A stretch of DNA of 64,000 nt from a virus. Lineage: Duplodnaviria; Caudoviricetes. The stretch is taken from the IMG/VR virus record IMGVR_UViG_3300027805_000006; one strand, written 5' to 3'. The first letter of the stretch is position 1. The number at the start of each line of letters is the position of its first letter. The notes under the pieces are model-generated. The model saw nothing but the letters and a program-made list of their open reading frames with translations. It was not told the origin of the DNA and ran no database searches. Of the stretch, positions 10,410 to 53,259 are shown one piece after another. The position numbers and the translations under genes were made by a program.

Positions 10410-10417
10410 TATTTATA
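10410..10417 (-). promoter_or_regulatory. T4-type late promoter
   Basis: TATAAATA on the minus strand upstream of 10361 and groES. Confidence 0.65.
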
Positions 10418-20159: not shown

Positions 20160-22484
20160 TTATAGAACACAACTTTCACATACTTCTTCAACTTCTTCAA
20201 TAACTTCTTGCTTTACTTCTGGCTCAAATGCCTTCGCCGCTTCACGCGCCGCTTGCTTTTCAACTAGGTGGTAATAGTGACTTTTCAATCCCCACTTGTG
20301 GGCTAGCATTAGGTTCTTTGTTACCAAAGTTAGCGGTATCTTGCCATCGCTGAAGTGACGTGGAGAGTAGAAGGTATCTGACGAAATGCCCTGGTCAATG
20401 TATGCCTGCAGAACAGCCACTGTCTTGATGTAATCAACACAGTCCTTTTGTTCAAATAGCAACTGATAGTTCTTCTTCAGTTTTCTGAATTCAGGTGCCA
20501 CCTGTGGAATAATACCTGCCTTGCTTTCCTTAATAACAATGAACTGCTTTAGGAGGTTAATTCCATTGGTGCTATCAATTACAACTGAAGAACTTTCAAC
20601 AGGTGCAATTGCCATCAGGGTTGCATTACGAACACCGAAGGTCTTCATTTTCTCTCTTAGACCTTCCCAATCTAGATCATCACTAGGCACGAACGATGTT
20701 AGATCATCAACACCCTTTGAGCGTCTTTCCCAAGGGAATACACCCTTACCATACCAGGTATTATGACTTTGCGAACAAGGACCCTTTTCCTTTGCAAGTT
20801 CAACGCTCATTTCCGTAAGATAGAATGCTTGGTGTTCCATCCAGCGCTTTACTTCAGCAAGCGCTTCTGTATCACCATACCGCAACTTACGCTTTGCATG
20901 CCAGAATGCTAGGTTAGTAACGCCAATTCCAAGTGGTTCAAACTCTTCATTGTGGAGTTTGCTTTGAACTGAAAGGAAGTCCTGGTACTGCAGCAGATTA
21001 TGAAGACAGCGGTGAAGCAGCCTTGTTGGACGTCTCATTTCATCTGGGTGTCTGAACTTGCCCCAGTTCAAACTTCCAAGAGTGCATAACGCAATCCTAC
21101 CACACTCGTCATCTACCGTCTGGAATTCTCTTGTTGGGAGCATAATTTCAGTGCATAGGTTTGTCTGGTAGATAGGATGAACGCTGGTGTCAAAAGGACC
21201 TTGGTTTGAAACATTGTCAACGTTCAGAATATAGTAGCGACCAGTATCAGCACGCTCCTTCATTACCCAGCCGAATACCTTCTCTGCAGTTTCAACCTTT
21301 GAACGAATGTCCTTTCGCTTCTCATACTCGCAGTACAGTTGCTCAAACTTAGCACTATCGCTGTAGAATGCTTCATATAGGTCTGGCACCTGGTTAGGGT
21401 CAAAGAAGGTAATGTTTCCACCTTGTCGAAGCCGCCGCCAGAAGAAAGCACTTAGCACCACGCAGTAGTCCATCTGTCGTACGCGTGTTTCTTCAGTGCC
21501 TTGGTTGTTCTTTAGCACGATGAAGTCATCAAACTGATAGTGCCAGATTGGCATATTCACGGTTGCAGAAGCATTACGAATTCCACCCTGGCTGCACGAA
21601 CGAAGATCAGCAAACCACTTCTTCATAAAGGGAATAATGCCAGTGTGCATTACTTCGCCCTTTCTAATTTCGGCGCCCAATGGGCGAAGCCTTCCAATCT
21701 CTAGACCGATGCCTGCTCGCTTTGAGGCATAATCAGCCATAACTTGTCCAGTCGCAAAGATGCTTTTTAGTGTATCGTCAGTGCGCAACAACACACAGGA
21801 ACTAAACTGCTTTGTCTTAGTGCCTAGACCTGCAAGAACCGGTGTTGCCAGCGTAAAGAGCCCATCAGAAGCAGCAGAATAGAAGTCCTTTACCCACTTA
21901 AGTCGTTCTTTCTTTTCTGCGTGGAATGCCACCGCTGCAGCCACCATATAGCGAACCTGGGGGCTTTCAATGATAAGGTTGGTAGAACGATTTCTAACCA
22001 GGTATTTTTCAATAAGTTGTTCAACTGCAGCGTATGACAACTGTTCATCACGCTCGTGTTCAACCCACCTGTTCAGTTCATTCCACTCTTCTTCTGAGTA
22101 CCACTCTAGAAGTTCAGGGGTGTAGAGATTGAGTGCTACATTTTTCTTTACAATTTCATAAAGGTGTGGAGGATCATAATCTCCATACACATCTTTTCTT
22201 AACATGCTTATGCGCTGCTTTCCAGCAACATATTGGTAATTTGCATTTCCAATATCTGGATTTTCTTCTTCATCAATTAGATTGACCATTGCTCTTAGCG
22301 CAATTTGATCAAGTTCCCTAGTTGTCATACCATCAGTGAAATGCGCCTGGGCAGCAATTTCAATCATTGATGGGGAAACATCAGCAACACCCTCACATAC
22401 CTTTGCGATTTGTGCCTGCCACTTTGACAAGTCGAATGGGACTTTTTCCCCAGACCGTTTTACTACGAACATGCTTTTATCCAT
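20160..22484 (-). CDS. nrdA: ribonucleotide reductase class Ia alpha subunit
   Basis: ATP cone VVKRSG, FSSCVL, TNLCTEI, CTLG, C-terminal CESC; uninterrupted. Confidence 0.96.
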   Translation of the reverse strand: MDKSMFVVKRSGEKVPFDLSKWQAQIAKVCEGVADVSPSMIEIAAQAHFTDGMTTRELDQIALRAMVNLIDEEENPDIGNANYQYVAGKQRISMLRKDVYGDYDPPHLYEIVKKNVALNLYTPELLEWYSEEEWNELNRWVEHERDEQLSYAAVEQLIEKYLVRNRSTNLIIESPQVRYMVAAAVAFHAEKKERLKWVKDFYSAASDGLFTLATPVLAGLGTKTKQFSSCVLLRTDDTLKSIFATGQVMADYASKRAGIGLEIGRLRPLGAEIRKGEVMHTGIIPFMKKWFADLRSCSQGGIRNASATVNMPIWHYQFDDFIVLKNNQGTEETRVRQMDYCVVLSAFFWRRLRQGGNITFFDPNQVPDLYEAFYSDSAKFEQLYCEYEKRKDIRSKVETAEKVFGWVMKERADTGRYYILNVDNVSNQGPFDTSVHPIYQTNLCTEIMLPTREFQTVDDECGRIALCTLGSLNWGKFRHPDEMRRPTRLLHRCLHNLLQYQDFLSVQSKLHNEEFEPLGIGVTNLAFWHAKRKLRYGDTEALAEVKRWMEHQAFYLTEMSVELAKEKGPCSQSHNTWYGKGVFPWERRSKGVDDLTSFVPSDDLDWEGLREKMKTFGVRNATLMAIAPVESSSVVIDSTNGINLLKQFIVIKESKAGIIPQVAPEFRKLKKNYQLLFEQKDCVDYIKTVAVLQAYIDQGISSDTFYSPRHFSDGKIPLTLVTKNLMLAHKWGLKSHYYHLVEKQAAREAAKAFEPEVKQEVIEEVEEVCESCVL

Positions 22485-23433: not shown

Positions 23434-23943
23434 TCACCCCAAAATATCGCCTACCGTCTTCCCTCCGATCCAGCGGTGCAAATCATGTGGCCCGCACACA
23501 ATTCCATAGAAAATCGACTTCCCATGAAACAATTCCACACCTGTTGGGTGGATCATGGCTGATGCTTTTGGTACTGCAGGATGAATACAGGAAGTTTTGG
23601 CAGTATAGCCAATGATAGTCGCTGTTGCAGTTGCTAACTTACTGTCATCAGGAGAAAATAAAAGAAGGTCGTGGTTAAATGCAGCAGAACTGGTGATAGG
23701 GATACTATCAATTGTATAGGTTTCTTTATCAACTGCCATCACATGCCAACTTGCTGGAATTTCAACTTCTAAATTTTGAATACGCAGTTTAAGTGTATGA
23801 CCTGTCGTTTCCTCAAGGTACTGCATTTCCTCCAACTTAAAGTCCATCATATGACTGCTAAATGACCAAAAGTGGGAAACACCAATAGGAGCAGTAATGC
23901 TCTCTAGAATGTATGCGCGATTTACCTCAGATAATATTTGCAT
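23434..23943 (-). CDS. hypothetical protein (169 aa)
   Basis: Co-oriented ORF downstream of uvsW. Confidence 0.75.
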   Translation of the reverse strand: MQILSEVNRAYILESITAPIGVSHFWSFSSHMMDFKLEEMQYLEETTGHTLKLRIQNLEVEIPASWHVMAVDKETYTIDSIPITSSAAFNHDLLLFSPDDSKLATATATIIGYTAKTSCIHPAVPKASAMIHPTGVELFHGKSIFYGIVCGPHDLHRWIGGKTVGDILG

Positions 23944-24367
23944 TTTTGATATACTTTTCGGTTAGTTCTGCCAAAGTTAGTCGTGCAAAGTTTCCACCTG
24001 CAAATCGACCACCATACTTCTTCCATTCTTCTATTATAGATTGATATACCTGCTCTGCGGATACAATTTCTTGTGGTTGAAGGTGAATAATTATATCAAG
24101 CGTATCATACACTGTAGATGGGAGAGATCTGCCATAGTATGCTAGAAGTTGGTGTTGCTGGTTGCGGTGAAGGATGGCATTTAACTTTTCTTCCTCTTCT
24201 TGTGTACAGATTACATGAGCACGAGCCATCATATTAATAGTGTCACCAGCCATAAAAGCACCAGACAATTGCTCTTCAAGATTTGAGCCGCTGATTATAC
24301 CAATTGACAGGAGTTGGTGCCTTACATGCTGAAGGTCGCCAACGCCTGCTTTTCTCTCAATTCTCAT
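23927..24367 (-). CDS. hypothetical protein (146 aa)
   Basis: 4-nt overlap with the uvsW C-part. Confidence 0.7.
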   Translation of the reverse strand: MRIERKAGVGDLQHVRHQLLSIGIISGSNLEEQLSGAFMAGDTINMMARAHVICTQEEEEKLNAILHRNQQHQLLAYYGRSLPSTVYDTLDIIIHLQPQEIVSAEQVYQSIIEEWKKYGGRFAGGNFARLTLAELTEKYIKNANII

Positions 24368-25764
24368 GCTGTTGCCTTAACTACCTTCAGCACCGGGTAT
24401 TGGGCTGACTCGTAGTATTTTTTGCGCTCACGATAGTGCTTGCGTGACCACTTTAAACTTGAATGAATATCAACGCAATGCACTCTTTCCTTGTCATCTG
24501 CCTTGCGAAGACCACGACCGATAGATTGAATTGTACGGACAAATGATTTACCTGCATCAATCATCATAAGGTTGAATACACGGTCAATGCTGATACCTGT
24601 GCTTGCAATTCCAAATGTTGCAATGACGATTAGATTGTCGGTGTTTTCAAACATGTGGTACCATTCCGCACGGACATCATTCTCAGTGGCTCCATACAGA
24701 AACACACTATCCTTGATAAGTTTCTGCAGCGCTCTTCCCTGCTTCACTGAATTTACCAGCACAAAGGTATTACCAAATTGATCTGCCTTTGCAATGATAA
24801 GGTCAGCAATAAAGTCAAGTCTATCAGAATTCCTGCTGAGGAAAGTTTTTTCAGATGAATAATCTGGAAATTCTTCTGTTGCAGTTTCTTGAATTTCAAT
24901 CGGCTCAATTTCAAGTTGAGCAAGATAGCCCATCCTGATGAGGTCAGCGGCAGAAATTTCAAATAAGATTTCACCGATTGCACCCCGTAGTGACATCTGG
25001 TCAATCTTTGGCTTTGGGAAGGTGCCGGTAAATCCAAAGCGGTATGCACAGTTTTTACCGTGCTTGTTTATCAACTCTCCAATAGTTTTTGCCGAGGCAC
25101 CGTGGGCTTCATCCACAATAATGCAGTGAAAGTCCTCTACAACAACTGGGTTATTCTGCAGTGCCTGCCAAGTTGCTACTACGGTATAGTGGTGAATGTC
25201 CTTCTTGTTTCCAGAATAAACACCAACATCTAGATTTCCAAGCGTCATGGTGCTAGCAGTCTGCTCAACTAGGTCGGATGAAGGCACAATAACCAAGGTG
25301 CGAAGTTCTTGCTTTGCAAGAATGTCAGCCACACCGGCAATCATCCACGTGTTATGATGAAGAAGCCCATTTGCATCGTAATATGAATGATGATTGGCAT
25401 AAATTGAAATATCGTAAAATTCATCTTCACCATCTGGAATAATATCAACTATCTTTGTTAATCCTGTTTTTGTAACAATTTCATCATTGACATTCAATGA
25501 TGATGCCTTTATTACGCCATTTTTATTAAACACCAAATGACCAGCAGCACACCTCAACTTGCAATTTTCTGTGTGTAGAATAAGTGCTTTGTCAGTTTTT
25601 TTAATAGCAGCAACTGCTAATTCCCAGCCGGTGGGTGTTTCAAATTTAATTTGAAGATCAGAAATATCTACAGGAATATTGACTTCAAATCTGCGCCCCG
25701 TCGTTTCTCCAATGGCGTTGAAGAGTTTCGCAAATGTCGTCAAATAATTTGTGTCTCGGGTCAT
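24364..25764 (-). CDS. uvsW: UvsW SF2 helicase C-part fused to split-intein IntC
   Basis: After ...NGLLHHN|T: VPSSDL, VATWQ, IVDEAH, GFTGT, IATFGIASTGISI, QSIGRGLR. Confidence 0.92.
   Translation of the reverse strand: MTRDTNYLTTFAKLFNAIGETTGRRFEVNIPVDISDLQIKFETPTGWELAVAAIKKTDKALILHTENCKLRCAAGHLVFNKNGVIKASSLNVNDEIVTKTGLTKIVDIIPDGEDEFYDISIYANHHSYYDANGLLHHNTWMIAGVADILAKQELRTLVIVPSSDLVEQTASTMTLGNLDVGVYSGNKKDIHHYTVVATWQALQNNPVVVEDFHCIIVDEAHGASAKTIGELINKHGKNCAYRFGFTGTFPKPKIDQMSLRGAIGEILFEISAADLIRMGYLAQLEIEPIEIQETATEEFPDYSSEKTFLSRNSDRLDFIADLIIAKADQFGNTFVLVNSVKQGRALQKLIKDSVFLYGATENDVRAEWYHMFENTDNLIVIATFGIASTGISIDRVFNLMMIDAGKSFVRTIQSIGRGLRKADDKERVHCVDIHSSLKWSRKHYRERKKYYESAQYPVLKVVKATA
25351..25764 (-). 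mobile_element. split intein C-fragment (138 aa)
   Basis: Block B-like LRCAAGHLVF, block F EFYDISI, block G NGLLHHN followed by Thr+1; two in-frame TAA directly before its ATG. Confidence 0.88.
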
Positions 25765-26605
25765 TTATTATCCATTCTGAATACAAACTTTCTAGGTTTT
25801 TACCGTCAATTGCGCATATACATTTCTTTGCCAAATTTTCTGATTTAGATAACCATTTTAAATTTCGTGGAAATGCAATAAACTTTATATTAACACGATT
25901 TAAAAACCCCGCGCTGATAGAATATTGATGATCTAGATGTCTTATTCCATTCTTACTTTCACTACTTTGATTTATTTGGTCTTCAAACATACGTGCTGAA
26001 ATTTTTGTTAAAATTCCAACATAATGCTTGTATTGTATCTTACGATCGCGCTCCTTGATAAGTTCTTGTGGGATAGATGAAGTTTTTTGTAGTTCTTTTC
26101 TTGAGGAAACTGTTTCAGCCCATTTTTTGTTTCTTATTAACCATAATTTTATGCCTTCTTCTAATCCATTTCTCTCAACAAATTTTTCAATTCTTCCTGT
26201 TGATTGTCTCTGTTTTTGAAGAATTTTTGCTTTCTCAAAATCATTATCGGTTTTCTTAAGAAAATATTTTATGCCGGTGGTGTTTTTAGAAATACTAGAC
26301 TTTTGAAAAAGTGAATTACCTAACGCTTCTCCGTGTCTAGAAATTTTTGCTTTTAGCGAAGAAGTATCACAATTTTTAGGTTTCCATTTTTTTATTTTAT
26401 TCTGAACGTGCTCTGAATAAAGTTTAGTAGCGCGATCTTTAGTAAAACCAGAACAAAATCTATTCAAATCTATTGATGTTTTACTGCTTGATTTACAGTT
26501 ACACAAAACAACTTCTGTTAATATTTTACTCCTAGCGCGTTTAAATTCAGAACCGCAATGCAAGCAGCGGGGTGTATTAAGTACGTGACCTTTCCAAGTT
26601 TTCAA
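25685..26605 (-). mobile_element. free-standing HNH-type homing endonuclease inside uvsW
   Basis: Own AGGAGA RBS plus TTG; CxxC motif; NGLEEG repeat; HLDHQYSISAGF...NLKWLSKSENLAK HNH core; visibly AT-rich. Confidence 0.8.
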
Positions 26606-27089
26606 AATATTCTCCTATAATTCCACCTACACGTATATTTATAGGAGTATTTCCATCAATGCATTTCCCACTACCAGTGGCTGCCAGAATGAAGCCAGAA
26701 GTTGCTTCAAGCGCAGCATTCACAGCATCAACTTGGTATGGGCGGAGAACAACACCTAGTTTGTGTTCAGGCTTGTCTTTAAACCAATTGGCGTGAATAC
26801 GAGTTTGTACAATCGGCTGGGCTTTCCTATTATCAACAATTTCTAAGTCATATCCCCATTTATCAAGATACGGAGTCACTTCGTCCAATAGCCGAAAATA
26901 GATTTTGCCAGCCTTATCAAAAAAATGTACTTTACCATCCCAACGACCGAGCCGGTACAAGGGCATAAAATATGCTCCTTCCACCATTACTGCAAATTTT
27001 TCCTCCAGAACCTTATGATCAGCCGGTTCTAGCCCAGAAATCCTGCAAAACACCTCATCATCTACGGTTATGAAAACTTTTTTACTCAT
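26577..27089 (-). CDS. uvsW: UvsW helicase N-part fused to split-intein IntN
   Basis: RLGRWDGK, LRPYQ Q-motif, LAATGSGK followed by intein block A CIDGNTPINIRV and a stop. Confidence 0.92.
   Translation of the reverse strand: MSKKVFITVDDEVFCRISGLEPADHKVLEEKFAVMVEGAYFMPLYRLGRWDGKVHFFDKAGKIYFRLLDEVTPYLDKWGYDLEIVDNRKAQPIVQTRIHANWFKDKPEHKLGVVLRPYQVDAVNAALEATSGFILAATGSGKCIDGNTPINIRVGGIIGEYFENLERSRT
26580..26663 (-). mobile_element. split intein N-fragment (28 aa)
   Basis: CIDGNTPINIRVGGIIGEYFENLERSRT; Cys1 directly after Walker A Lys. Confidence 0.85.
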
Positions 27090-27532
27090 TCTTGACTAAA
27101 TGAAAAATGGCGTTCTAGATTATTCTTCCTGATATAGGAGATAGGTGTGATGTTCAAATTTGCTGCAGTAACAGTAATCATAGTCATCAGAGTGCTAATC
27201 TTAAGTTGCTCAATTGCAGTAATACTATGTTCAGGGCTAAGCACTGCCTTAATCTTTGCCCCGTTGGTGTGTTCGTGAAAAGAGATTACAAAATCGTCAT
27301 TGACAAAATTTACCGTCATAGCAGGAAAACAATTTTTTGTCAAACTTACGCTGCTCTTTGAAATATTAATTGGCGAAGAAGCAGAAGTACTTCCAAAACT
27401 TCCACCAGATATAATTGATCCTGATGTTATAGACGGTGACATTGGTTGATTGGTAATCGAGTACGTATAGTTTAGTGTTCCTGAAGCATCAGCGGTCACA
27501 CTAATACCACTATCATCGGTAGAATTTGACAT
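27086..27532 (-). CDS. hypothetical protein, Ser-rich N-terminus
   Basis: AAGGAAG RBS; coupled to uvsW. Confidence 0.7.
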   Translation of the reverse strand: MSNSTDDSGISVTADASGTLNYTYSITNQPMSPSITSGSIISGGSFGSTSASSPINISKSSVSLTKNCFPAMTVNFVNDDFVISFHEHTNGAKIKAVLSPEHSITAIEQLKISTLMTMITVTAANLNITPISYIRKNNLERHFSFSQE

Positions 27533-27541
27533 ATATCTTCC

Positions 27542-28003
27542 TTATAAAATAATATCGTTGAGGGATGCTACACGCAATTTTACAATATTTGAAAGCATCC
27601 AGCCCATTTGTTTGAATGATTCAACAATTGATTCAAGTCGCTGCTGGTACAAACTTGCTTCTACGATAAGTTGATTATGCTCTATCATATCTTTTTCACC
27701 AGAGATAAGCACACTTGTTTCTCTAGCACCAAAAGCGCGCTGACCATTTAGGTAGTTTTTGGTCAGCCGTGCCTCAATTCTACTCTTGTAGTTTTCCAAC
27801 CACTTCACAAGTTGCTTTGCTTCCTGTGCAAGTTGGTCATACCTCATCTGATGATGGGGCAGATTTCTAATGAGTATTTCTAGCCGTTCTCCACCAAGTT
27901 CAAACAGTGGTTCTGCTTGTGTAATACTTTCTTCGTACCGTGCAAAGAACGAAACAAGTTCATCTGCTAATTTATTTTCATCAATCTGGAGAAGAACGGT
28001 CAT
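27542..28003 (-). CDS. uvsY: UvsY-like recombination mediator
   Basis: All-helical 153 aa; C-terminal LESIVESFKQMGWMLSNIVKLR pattern; lies between uvsX and uvsW. Confidence 0.7.
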   Translation of the reverse strand: MTVLLQIDENKLADELVSFFARYEESITQAEPLFELGGERLEILIRNLPHHQMRYDQLAQEAKQLVKWLENYKSRIEARLTKNYLNGQRAFGARETSVLISGEKDMIEHNQLIVEASLYQQRLESIVESFKQMGWMLSNIVKLRVASLNDIIL

Positions 28004-29674: not shown

Positions 29675-30574
29675 TTACTCGGCAGTCGCAGCAGCCTTCT
29701 GCTGTTGTCGAAGCCGAAGTTGTTCAACTACACTCAACTTCTTACCTTCTGCAGGAGCAGATGGAGCGGGAGCCGGTGCAGGAGCCTCATCAGTGCTGGT
29801 TGAAAGTGCCTTGGCAACCTTTGATACTGCAGGCTTGGCAGGTGCAGCATCTTCAGCATCTTCACCATTTGGTAGTGAAGAGCCAGTCTGATCAGCGATC
29901 AGCATCGCTTCAAGTTGCTCTCGCGAAACCTTAGAAGTGCGATATGCCTTCAGGTCAAATAGTTCGATTGCCTCAAGTACGTCGTCAGCAACATCAGTTT
30001 GCTTAGGAGAGAAACTAGAGGTACCATAGTCAGCATACTGACCAGATTGGGTCTTCTTGATACGGAAGTTATACCCACCCTTTAGTTCGTAAGGAGGTTC
30101 CTCAAGATCACCGCTTTGGAAGGCTGCTTGAATTTGCTTGAAGATCTTTGGTCCAAACTCGATCAACTTAACAAGTTGCTCTGTGTCGTGCTCGACAGGG
30201 GTCTCAAGAACTAGCACTTGACCAATGTAGCCCTTCTTACGGTAGTACTTCTTACCGAGTTCAGGGTTGTGCTCAGGATCCTTTTCATCGTAGTACTTAG
30301 AGGACAGGGCGCAGATTGGGCAGTCCTCGCCGTGCATCTTCAGGCAGGCAACCTTCTCACGCTTACCATTTACAACAAGATCGTGAGTTAGGTTTTCCAC
30401 GAGGAAACCCATCGGATTATCTTCATCTAGGTCGGGTAGGAAGCGGACAACAGAAACGCTGTCTGCGGGTGCCTTCCAAAAATTGAAAAACTTCTTCCAA
30501 TTTTGGTCACCACCAGTGCCGGTGGTCTTTTGGGCGAATGAGGCGGCTAGGTCAGCCAGAGTACGTTTTGCCAT
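29675..30574 (-). CDS. single-stranded DNA-binding protein (T4 gp32-like)
   Basis: VVRFLP, H...C...CPIC zinc ligands, GPKIFKQI, GYNFRIKK, YADY; start reassigned to MAKRTL (GGAA RBS). Confidence 0.9.
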   Translation of the reverse strand: MAKRTLADLAASFAQKTTGTGGDQNWKKFFNFWKAPADSVSVVRFLPDLDEDNPMGFLVENLTHDLVVNGKREKVACLKMHGEDCPICALSSKYYDEKDPEHNPELGKKYYRKKGYIGQVLVLETPVEHDTEQLVKLIEFGPKIFKQIQAAFQSGDLEEPPYELKGGYNFRIKKTQSGQYADYGTSSFSPKQTDVADDVLEAIELFDLKAYRTSKVSREQLEAMLIADQTGSSLPNGEDAEDAAPAKPAVSKVAKALSTSTDEAPAPAPAPSAPAEGKKLSVVEQLRLRQQQKAAATAE

Positions 30575-30646
30575 TTTATAAATTCCTTCAAAGTTAGAAT
30601 AAACAAGATTGATTTTGTATAAACAGTGTTGATTGCTCAACAATTT

Positions 30647-30654
30647 TATTTATA
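30647..30654 (-). promoter_or_regulatory. T4-type late promoter upstream of SSB
   Basis: TATAAATA. Confidence 0.55.
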
Positions 30655-52884: not shown

Positions 52885-52908
52885 TGTATCCTCAGAACTT
52901 TTGTTTAT

Positions 52909-53259
52909 TTATAATGCTACACCCTTGCCGTTAATACTGGTTAGTAGCCAGTATCCTTCAGGCATTTTCTTTAAAGTTAAGTTCTCATCATCGTTTTTAA
53001 TGAGTTCAAACCACTGTCCTGGTGAGGTGTTATAAATTCTGAATTCATTATTTCCTAATGACGTATGAATTTCAACCTTTGTGATGTCCCATATCTGGTA
53101 TGGGGGTGATGACTTAATTGATAAGGAAGCATTTCCAACTGCATATCCATCTTTTATTGCAACCTTCAGCGGCTTATGTGCTTGGTACAACTTAAGCAGC
53201 ATTTTTCCGATAAAAACATCCGGAATGCTGTCTTCCTCGAAGAGTTCAAACATCTTCAT
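52909..53259 (-). CDS. putative internal head protein
   Basis: MKMFELFEE start. Confidence 0.7.
   Translation of the reverse strand: MKMFELFEEDSIPDVFIGKMLLKLYQAHKPLKVAIKDGYAVGNASLSIKSSPPYQIWDITKVEIHTSLGNNEFRIYNTSPGQWFELIKNDDENLTLKKMPEGYWLLTSINGKGVAL

Follow-up and report, generated by a model that had tools for sequence, protein, structure and literature searches.

Natural atypically split inteins, with N-terminal halves (IntN) of 15-37 amino acids (aa), have already been described as tools (PMC13014065, PMC10189870). Among the systems known, AceL TerL (IntN of 25 aa), GOS TerL (37 aa), Cat/CatC (30 aa) and PolB16 OarG (15 aa) are natural or consensus inteins of phage or metagenome origin that pair a short IntN holding block A only with a long C-terminal half (IntC) carrying blocks B, F and G, and VidaL (PDB 6vgv/6vgw), which occurs naturally and is atypically split, has an IntN of 16 aa. 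In the TerL inteins the break follows helix alpha1, at site S2, and site S1 is assigned to VidaL and PolB16 (PMC13014065). Genes fractured by split inteins together with free-standing endonucleases were described by Dassa, London, Stoddard, Schueler-Furman and Pietrokovski in 2009 (PMC2677866); these are phage-derived loci in which a gene of DNA metabolism is present as two neighbouring halves on the same strand, with a split intein at the break and between them an endonuclease gene whose 3' end overlaps the downstream half and whose 5' end bears hairpins. In the summary that the same paper gives of work on Aeh1, the nrdA/mobE locus of this phage is a T-even-type phage gene split by an HNH-type free-standing endonuclease gene, the two being co-transcribed and the endonuclease confined to the late phase of infection at the levels of transcription and translation (Gibb and Edgell via PMC2677866). 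Here we analyse a locus with the fractured-gene layout of Dassa et al., the helicase gene uvsW in the virus record IMGVR_UViG_3300027805_000006, of which the whole 64,000-nucleotide (nt) stretch analysed is called the window. Our reading, to which we give a probability of roughly 0.8, is that uvsW is fractured, that the intein inserted at its Walker A motif is itself broken after strand beta2 by an HNH-like nuclease gene, and that the two intein halves trans-splice.

The locus was found to consist of three overlapping open reading frames (ORFs), in three different frames of the minus strand on which all genes of the window lie, encoding the N-terminal part of UvsW with IntN, the nuclease, and IntC with the C-terminal part of UvsW (Table 1). 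The nuclease ORF shares 29 nt with the N gene upstream of it and 80 nt with the C gene downstream; it starts at a TTG with the Shine-Dalgarno (SD) core AGGAG 6 nt upstream, within IntN codons, and the ATG of the C gene is immediately preceded, in frame, by TAA TAA. An earlier, sequence-only reading of this DNA had described the three-part layout, the nuclease ORF between the halves and overlapping both, and its own SD and TTG start embedded in IntN codons, and all the ORFs were recovered as described.

Both outer ORFs carry UvsW. The N-extein matched Pfam UvsW_N (E 5e-8) and the T4 UvsW structures 1rif and 2oca (E 3.6e-5 and 7.8e-5), and the C-extein, which completes an SF2 helicase, matched T4 UvsW 2oca (E 1.8e-26), Pfam ResIII and Helicase_C and a PHROG DNA helicase (E 5.7e-64), so that both exteins have a counterpart in T4 UvsW. 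Among cultured phages the extein is closest to that of the 344-kb Ralstonia phage RsoM2USA, whose intein-free UvsW (466 aa) is 44.9% identical to the N-extein up to residue 142, is colinear without an insert and reads ...GTGAGK/TQICAA at the junction. Because this uninterrupted protein runs through the junction, the insert in the window lies exactly between K and T of the P-loop (GSGK/T), as the sequence-only reading had proposed, and its excision would restore GSGKT.

Relatives were gathered by a word-indexed search with the IntC region, from which contigs were fetched, plus one metagenome scan; a scan of IMG/VR with an IntC profile gave no relative. Two kinds were recovered: C-parts of split genes, 431-471 aa long, and UvsW proteins of 634-640 aa that are uninterrupted and contain a contiguous mini-intein, the latter in four relatives, where it measures 155-166 aa and occupies the same GxGK/C...HHN/T site. 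The fractured layout occurs in seven lineages, the window (IntN of 28 aa, nuclease ORF of 306 aa) and six others, five with a nuclease gene (L001, 29 and 301 aa; L003/L004, 29 and 300 aa; L006, 29 and 305 aa; L007, 25 and 304 aa; L010, 28 and 320 aa) and one without. This last, L002 (= L008/L009), was recovered in three separate assemblies and has an IntN of 35 aa followed by a stop, a 141-nt spacer and a new ATG. Since the nuclease-free form keeps its stop, spacer and own ATG, the halves can be joined at the protein level only. Between pairs of the seven lineages, identity averages 61% (N-extein), 71% (C-extein), 46% (IntN), 48% (IntC) and 46% (nuclease), and the layout is kept down to about 35% IntC identity.

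Judged by its motifs and profile matches, the insert is a class 1 intein with Cys1 and Thr+1 and a HINT fold. Cys1 stands directly after GSGK and is invariant in the eight aligned N-side sequences (split: window, L001, L003 and L002; four contiguous), position 1 of the intein being Cys also in L006, L007 and L010. IntC ends in ...LLHHN followed by TWMIAG, and in an alignment of 11 sequences the block B motif C-A-x-x-H with its catalytic His76 (IntC numbering), the F-Y-D of block F, the H-H-N of block G and T+1 were all invariant (block G reading H137-N138, then T139); the blocks B, F and G that the sequence-only reading had assigned to IntC are thus borne out, with their catalytic residues unchanged in 11 relatives. 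Against PDB sequences, IntC by itself matched the Spl DnaX mini-intein (E 3.7e-4) and VidaL (E 6.2e-4), and the profile of the family (11 members) matched VidaL (E 3.8e-11), gp41-1 (4.2e-6), CatC (1.4e-4) and PolB16 (1.7e-3), as well as Spl DnaX; by tblastn, IntC was about 31% identical to annotated TerL inteins of Campylobacter phages CP220/CPt10. An AlphaFold2 (AF2) model of a contiguous relative at 49% identity (P0005:136-315; mean predicted local distance difference test, pLDDT, 89.7) matched 62 PDB entries at E<=1e-3, the best 50 of the 62 all being inteins or intein-like HINT domains, and its best match was VidaL (E 2e-9; TM 0.84 by target; root-mean-square deviation 3.0). The intein is real, and its halves probably trans-splice.

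The point at which the intein is broken could be placed by comparison with its contiguous relatives. IntN residues 1-12 align with beta1-beta2 of these relatives and IntC residues from about 3 to 20 with the following strand and helix alpha1, so that the break falls in the hairpin turn immediately behind beta2; beyond the core, IntN ends in an appended tail of 16 residues. The shortest contiguous relative, P0011, passes from beta1-beta2 through five residues into the stretch aligned with the IntC head, and in the P0005 model beta2 (intein residues 7-14) makes a hairpin with strand 25-32, ahead of helix alpha1 (33-42). The core had earlier been guessed at about 14 aa; alignment and model put the break close to that, at about residue 12. 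IntN measures 25-35 aa in the relatives. On the predicted structure of P0005, the split site is of the S1 type, as in VidaL and PolB16, and not the S2 type of the TerL inteins, and the locus has the make-up of a naturally atypically split intein, with block A only in its IntN and blocks B, F and G in its IntC.

The fit of the halves was modelled from IntC (145 aa) and IntN plus 17 extein residues (45 aa), with own alignments. The predicted complex reached a median ipSAE of 0.74 (three runs, 0.74-0.76), the best control reaching 0.00; the ipSAE mark is attained by 58 of 80 solved complexes and by 2 of 110 mismatched pairs, counts that are rough when own alignments are used. The pLDDT was 82 for IntC and 65 for IntN, and the confident interface took in IntN residues 1-21 and 23-24 and IntC residues 2-22, 37-42, 70-77, 114-118 and 128-139, with the IntN tail also resting on the IntC head.

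VidaL is the closest solved intein by profile and by fold, with which the window intein shares Cys1, the unusual block B C-A-x-x-H, a similar block G (H-x-x-Y-Y ... S/H-H-N) and the split directly after beta2 at the S1 site (PMC13014065). The two differ in being only about 19-25% identical, and the IntN of the window is 28 aa long since a 16-aa tail follows its beta1-beta2 core. The full name of VidaL is 'VidaL T4Lh-1'; if its host is a T4-like helicase, the two inteins are possibly distant alleles. The AceL/GOS TerL, Cat/CatC and PolB16 inteins differ from the present one in host gene, which here is uvsW at its Walker A motif; the TerL inteins are split after alpha1 (PMC13014065), whereas the window intein is split before it, and PolB16 uses Ser1/Ser+1 where the window intein has Cys1/Thr+1. 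The sequence-only reading had called this a new atypical split intein, which holds in so far as it is a new family member; the kind, however, was already described (PMC13014065, PMC10189870).

Table 1. Coordinates in the window of the fractured uvsW locus, its parts and associated sequence motifs.
Feature	Position	Strand	Description
ORF UvsW-N+IntN, 170 aa	26577-27089	minus	142-aa N-extein, 28-aa IntN and stop
Nuclease ORF, 306 aa, TTG start	25685-26605	minus	sits between the intein halves
ORF IntC+UvsW-C, 466 aa	24364-25764	minus	138-aa IntC and 328-aa C-extein
uvsW N-extein, 142 aa	26664-27089	minus	ends ...AATGSGK, the first part of Walker A
uvsW C-extein, 328 aa and stop	24364-25350	minus	opens with T+1 (TWMIAG...), the last Walker A residue
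IntN, 28 aa and stop, CIDGNTPINIRVGGIIGEYFENLERSRT	26577-26663	minus	follows ...AATGSGK
IntN core C1-V12 (block A)	26628-26663	minus	strands beta1-beta2
IntC, 138 aa	25351-25764	minus	strand and helix alpha1, block B (CAAGH, His76), block F (FYDIS), block G (HHN138)
HNH-like catalytic module, nuclease residues 222-260	25826-25942	minus	RHLDH (222-226) ... N248 ... N257
Dual-coding overlap, 80 nt	25685-25764	minus	nuclease C-terminal helix / IntC start and first helix
TATAAATA, T4 late-promoter consensus	26636-26643	minus	IntN codons P-I-N-I, 30 nt upstream of nuclease start
Predicted RNA hairpin, CUCCUAUAA pairing with UUAUAGGAG	26603-26655	minus	would mask the nuclease ribosome-binding site
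Other TATAAATA octamers	10410-10417, 30647-30654, 52906-52913	minus	ahead of a 77-aa ORF, gp32 and a 246-aa ORF

The middle gene is a probable HNH-like free-standing homing endonuclease, to judge from its motifs and modelled fold. Orthologues of 300-320 aa lie between the intein halves in L001, L003, L006, L007 and L010, the six nucleases being 30-65% identical, and all six nuclease-bearing loci share a nuclease/IntC overlap of 71-101 nt. In the AF2 model (pLDDT 89.9) an N-terminal four-Cys zinc ribbon (C14, C17, C35 and C37, invariant among five close orthologues) is followed by helical repeats, at about residues 47-206, and a C-terminal beta-beta-alpha element (strand 222-226, strand 249-253 and helix 254-260). 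Within this element H223, D225, H226, N248 and N257 are all invariant among five close orthologues, and in an alignment of 36 relatives D225 was invariant and H226, N248 and N257 nearly so. An exhaustive profile search returned 1182 remote relatives at E<=1e-3, two of which match PHROGs, one named 'homing endonuclease' and one 'HNH endonuclease'. Fold matches were weak (VIA-align: Gme HNH, Z 4.1, within noise; GVE2 HNH, Z 3.1), as were those to the many AFDB clusters named 'HNH nuclease' (E 1.8e-3 to 0.8), and an Atlas feature search returned DUF7487/HNH clusters at 0.85-0.87. Foldseek with the full model found no PDB match at E<=1e-3, and Pfam on ten remote relatives gave ROS/MucR zinc-finger matches only, none HNH.

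Compared with the fractured genes of Dassa et al., the locus departs in several respects. Theirs are endonucleases of GIY-YIG or Vsr-like type, and an HNH gene lying between the halves of a split intein is only a prediction there; their inteins are broken at the canonical site in all but one case (terminase); and uvsW is absent from their eight host enzymes (PMC2677866). The overlap with the downstream half is 71-101 nt in the window family as against 6-69 bp in those fractured genes (PMC2677866), and the window endonuclease also overlaps the upstream half, unlike theirs. The Aeh1 locus, in the summary given by PMC2677866, differs in having no intein, its NrdA pieces associating without splicing, and the late promoter and masked ribosome-binding site (RBS) of the window are predictions. 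No paper among those searched combines a split intein with UvsW. The locus varies the known kind modestly: by an HNH-like nuclease, by overlaps at both ends of its gene, by a tail on an IntN split at the S1 site, and by Cys1/Thr+1.

The IntN codons contain, as nt 20-27 of the intein coding sequence, the octamer TATAAATA, which we take as a putative late promoter of the nuclease gene. L001, L003 and L007 have it at this position of the intein too, which makes four of the six nuclease-bearing loci including the window, and L006 and the nuclease-free L002 each show one mismatch to it. Codon usage predicts this octamer on x-I-N-I in just 0.6-3.3% of cases per locus, and in L003 the residue before I-N-I has changed from Pro to Cys with the needed T retained. 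Each of the three further coding-strand copies in the window is followed, 21-72 nt downstream, by an SD and start codon, which fits T4-type late promoters in this phage. The gp32-like ORF behind one of them (29675-30643, minus) is listed from a TTG at 30643; an ATG at 30574 with an SD gives 299 aa (MAKRTLADL...), and it is here, 72 nt downstream of TATAAATA, that the protein probably starts.

A predicted RNA hairpin may regulate translation of the nuclease. Its arm CUCCUAUAA overlaps the promoter motif, and the pairing arm UUAUAGGAG is the nuclease SD (AGGAG, 26612-26616). Masking of an RBS by a hairpin is known for T4 late genes and, in the account of Aeh1 given in PMC2677866, reported for mobE. 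No terminator-like site was found on the coding strand across the locus.

Anatomy, homology, conservation and insertion site are established here; we infer association of the halves and splicing, the activity and target of the nuclease, and regulation by promoter and hairpin, and a course of events may be proposed as follows. Two polypeptides would be made, UvsW-N with its 28-aa IntN and the 138-aa IntC with UvsW-C; beta1-beta2 of IntN would dock on IntC and complete the HINT fold, the 16-aa tail packing against the first strand and helix of IntC, and protein trans-splicing would ligate the exteins and rebuild GSGKT to give an active 470-aa helicase. The nuclease would probably be silent early, its RBS being paired in read-through transcripts, and probably be expressed late from the TATAAATA promoter within the IntN codons, on a transcript that would start just past the promoter and lack the 5' hairpin arm. 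The nuclease would in this way be kept off early while uvsW is made, and its cutting of uvsW alleles that lack the nuclease gene would spread the element.

Several observations weigh against a trans-splicing intein broken by an HNH-like nuclease gene under such control. In block B (CAAGH) an Ala replaces the Thr of most inteins at this position, although VidaL, an active intein, has the same C-A-x-x-H, and the Pfam intein models gave no match to IntC even at E 10. The start of IntC has a weak SD and an ambiguous start codon (ATG 25764 or TTG 25743); because a gene caller of a public database placed the start of the C gene seven codons later, at the TTG (P0001), IntC is possibly 131 rather than 138 aa long. 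The complex score may in part be memory of solved split-intein complexes and is to be read as likeness, not binding. The window nuclease had no significant match to a curated HNH profile (Pfam to E 10, PHROGs), so that of the 'HNH' label given in the sequence-only reading the motif and the weak fold likeness stand, but not a family match. The hairpin has a minimum free energy of -16.5 kcal/mol (z -1.73), 14 of 200 shuffles folding as well, and the other loci do not clearly keep its fold.

The alternative that survives best, though we consider it improbable, is that the intein halves merely hold the UvsW pieces together without splicing, making a non-covalent two-chain helicase like the HNH-fractured NrdA of Aeh1. 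Fractured genes without splicing do exist, PMC2677866 citing Aeh1 nrdA/mobE and phage 25 gp43, and the missing block B Thr would suit such a role. The break, however, lies inside the P-loop (GSGK / T), where a leftover intein complex of 166 aa would disrupt ATP binding. Moreover C1, the block B His, the penultimate His, the terminal Asn and T+1, all the residues on which the four splicing steps depend, are invariant at about 48% intein identity, and loss of splicing is unlikely because a non-splicing element is not expected to keep these residues over such divergence.

Homing endonuclease insertions can inactivate genes, and UvsW is, as is generally known, not strictly essential in T4, which would allow uvsW here to be a decaying pseudogene disrupted by a mobile nuclease gene, with the intein halves as functionless remnants. 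This is very unlikely, as both extein halves are intact, without frameshifts or stops, and 61-71% identical across the seven lineages, and the layout persists down to about 35% IntC identity.

Slighter still is the chance that a group I intron houses the nuclease gene, the intein ORF being rejoined by RNA splicing for subsequent cis-splicing. T4-like phages are generally known to carry group I introns with endonuclease ORFs, and RNA data touch this locus: eight short contigs of a 2017 freshwater metatranscriptomic run were 100% identical to the window between 23900 and 27600, which places the phage in fresh water, although DNA carry-over is possible. Their coverage of the locus is so thin that a processed form could go unseen; one of them spans the nuclease/IntC junction unspliced, and no joints were seen at this thin coverage. 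The intron would also have no non-coding room, its core having to lie wholly in coding sequence because the nuclease ORF overlaps both flanking ORFs, and the nuclease-free L002 keeps stop and restart with a spacer of 141 nt, less than a group I core needs. Rfam gave no match at E<=1 in window positions 23500-28000 and none at the gathering score in eight related loci, in agreement with the earlier preference for splicing of protein over RNA. That the real gene is one continuous ORF and its break an assembly or sequencing artefact, as might be feared of a window from a metagenomic assembly, can practically be dismissed, given the same layout in independent assemblies of six other lineages (seven in all, from different assemblies and data sources, the nuclease-free form being found three times) and contigs from a separate RNA-library run 100% identical to the window wherever they cover it.

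The relatives bear on how the locus arose. The loci of the contiguous form L011 and of the window are orthologous, as shown by their same gene order (a 153-aa gene, uvsW, a 169-aa gene, GH108, NrdA and NrdB). In a tree of the exteins rooted on the intein-free RsoM2USA, split forms are basal, and the contiguous forms are nested among split ones within one clade (95/92), other nodes being weaker, which is compatible with re-fusion after loss of the nuclease gene or with repeated invasion of contiguous inteins by it. A firm direction of evolution was considered and rejected, given the moderate tree support and the ability of homing to move the nuclease gene. L002 may have lost the nuclease or never gained it; alignment of its 141-nt spacer with the 3' ends of the nuclease genes is ambiguous at the DNA level upstream of the dual-coding part.

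A further proposition, that the locus is an interlocked three-gene unit in which intein codons double as the control sequence of the nuclease, is tentative and, with all its parts taken jointly, doubtful. On this proposition the beta2 codons P-I-N-I would be kept as TATAAATA for the late promoter of the nuclease; the IntN tail would mainly carry the RBS, masking hairpin and first codons of the nuclease; the first helix of IntC would be overprinted by the last helix of the nuclease; and the contiguous relatives would descend from a split ancestor by re-fusion, which reverses the usual course of gene breaking. Were the interlocked unit real, a splicing-competent IntN of about 12 residues would be the shortest natural IntN.

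Inteins that are atypically split and whose IntN is short are favoured tools in protein semisynthesis and in editing proteins in live cells, and few natural ones have been characterised (AceL/GOS TerL, VidaL, PolB16). The seven natural IntN/IntC pairs and four contiguous relatives at one site make up a panel on which the IntN minimum, the role of the tail and orthogonality can be addressed. Orthologous, syntenic loci also show three stages of a fractured gene, namely a contiguous intein, a split intein with a nuclease and a split intein without one. The break falls at a non-canonical point, and the HNH-like nuclease is of the type predicted but not seen by Dassa et al. (PMC2677866). A nuclease promoter set within intein codons is, in addition, an idea that can be tested on this locus.

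The window is T4-like jumbo phage DNA, in which uvsW has gp32, UvsX, a GH108 endolysin, NrdA and NrdB as neighbours. A blastn search of the locus against 50,697 phage records found a 137-nt helicase motif at 72% identity and nothing more.

Among the contiguous-intein UvsW proteins (L011:1047-2951 and proteins P0005, P0006 and P0007), P0006 and P0007 have identical C-exteins and P0005 a nearly identical one, at a branch length of 0.006, and yet the intein regions of the three are just 67-69% identical. They carry a hypervariable loop of 12-17 aa precisely where the fractured relatives are split. The pattern points to exchange of intein alleles, or to very fast evolution of the intein, in co-circulating phages.

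Endonuclease genes of GIY-YIG (LEM-3) type adjoin some of the loci on the opposite strand, directly upstream of uvsW-N in L003 (L003:2835-3593) and L004 (L004:2835-3593) and directly downstream of uvsW-C in L006 (L006:3801-4409), and the window has none. Because such genes adjoin L003, L004 and L006, these loci are hot spots for several kinds of mobile nuclease gene. In the ribonucleotide reductase (RNR) region, Pfam Intein_splicing matches were found in genes at L001:11080-11394, L002:4615-7065 and L002:7180-7602; the window NrdA (20160-22484, 774 aa) has RNR domains only. The L002 contig (QLUH01000041.1, NCBI GCA_018725305.1) is filed under a metagenome-assembled genome of Syntrophomonadaceae; it carries a phage uvsW and RNR genes with inteins and probably belongs to a phage, having been binned with a bacterial genome.

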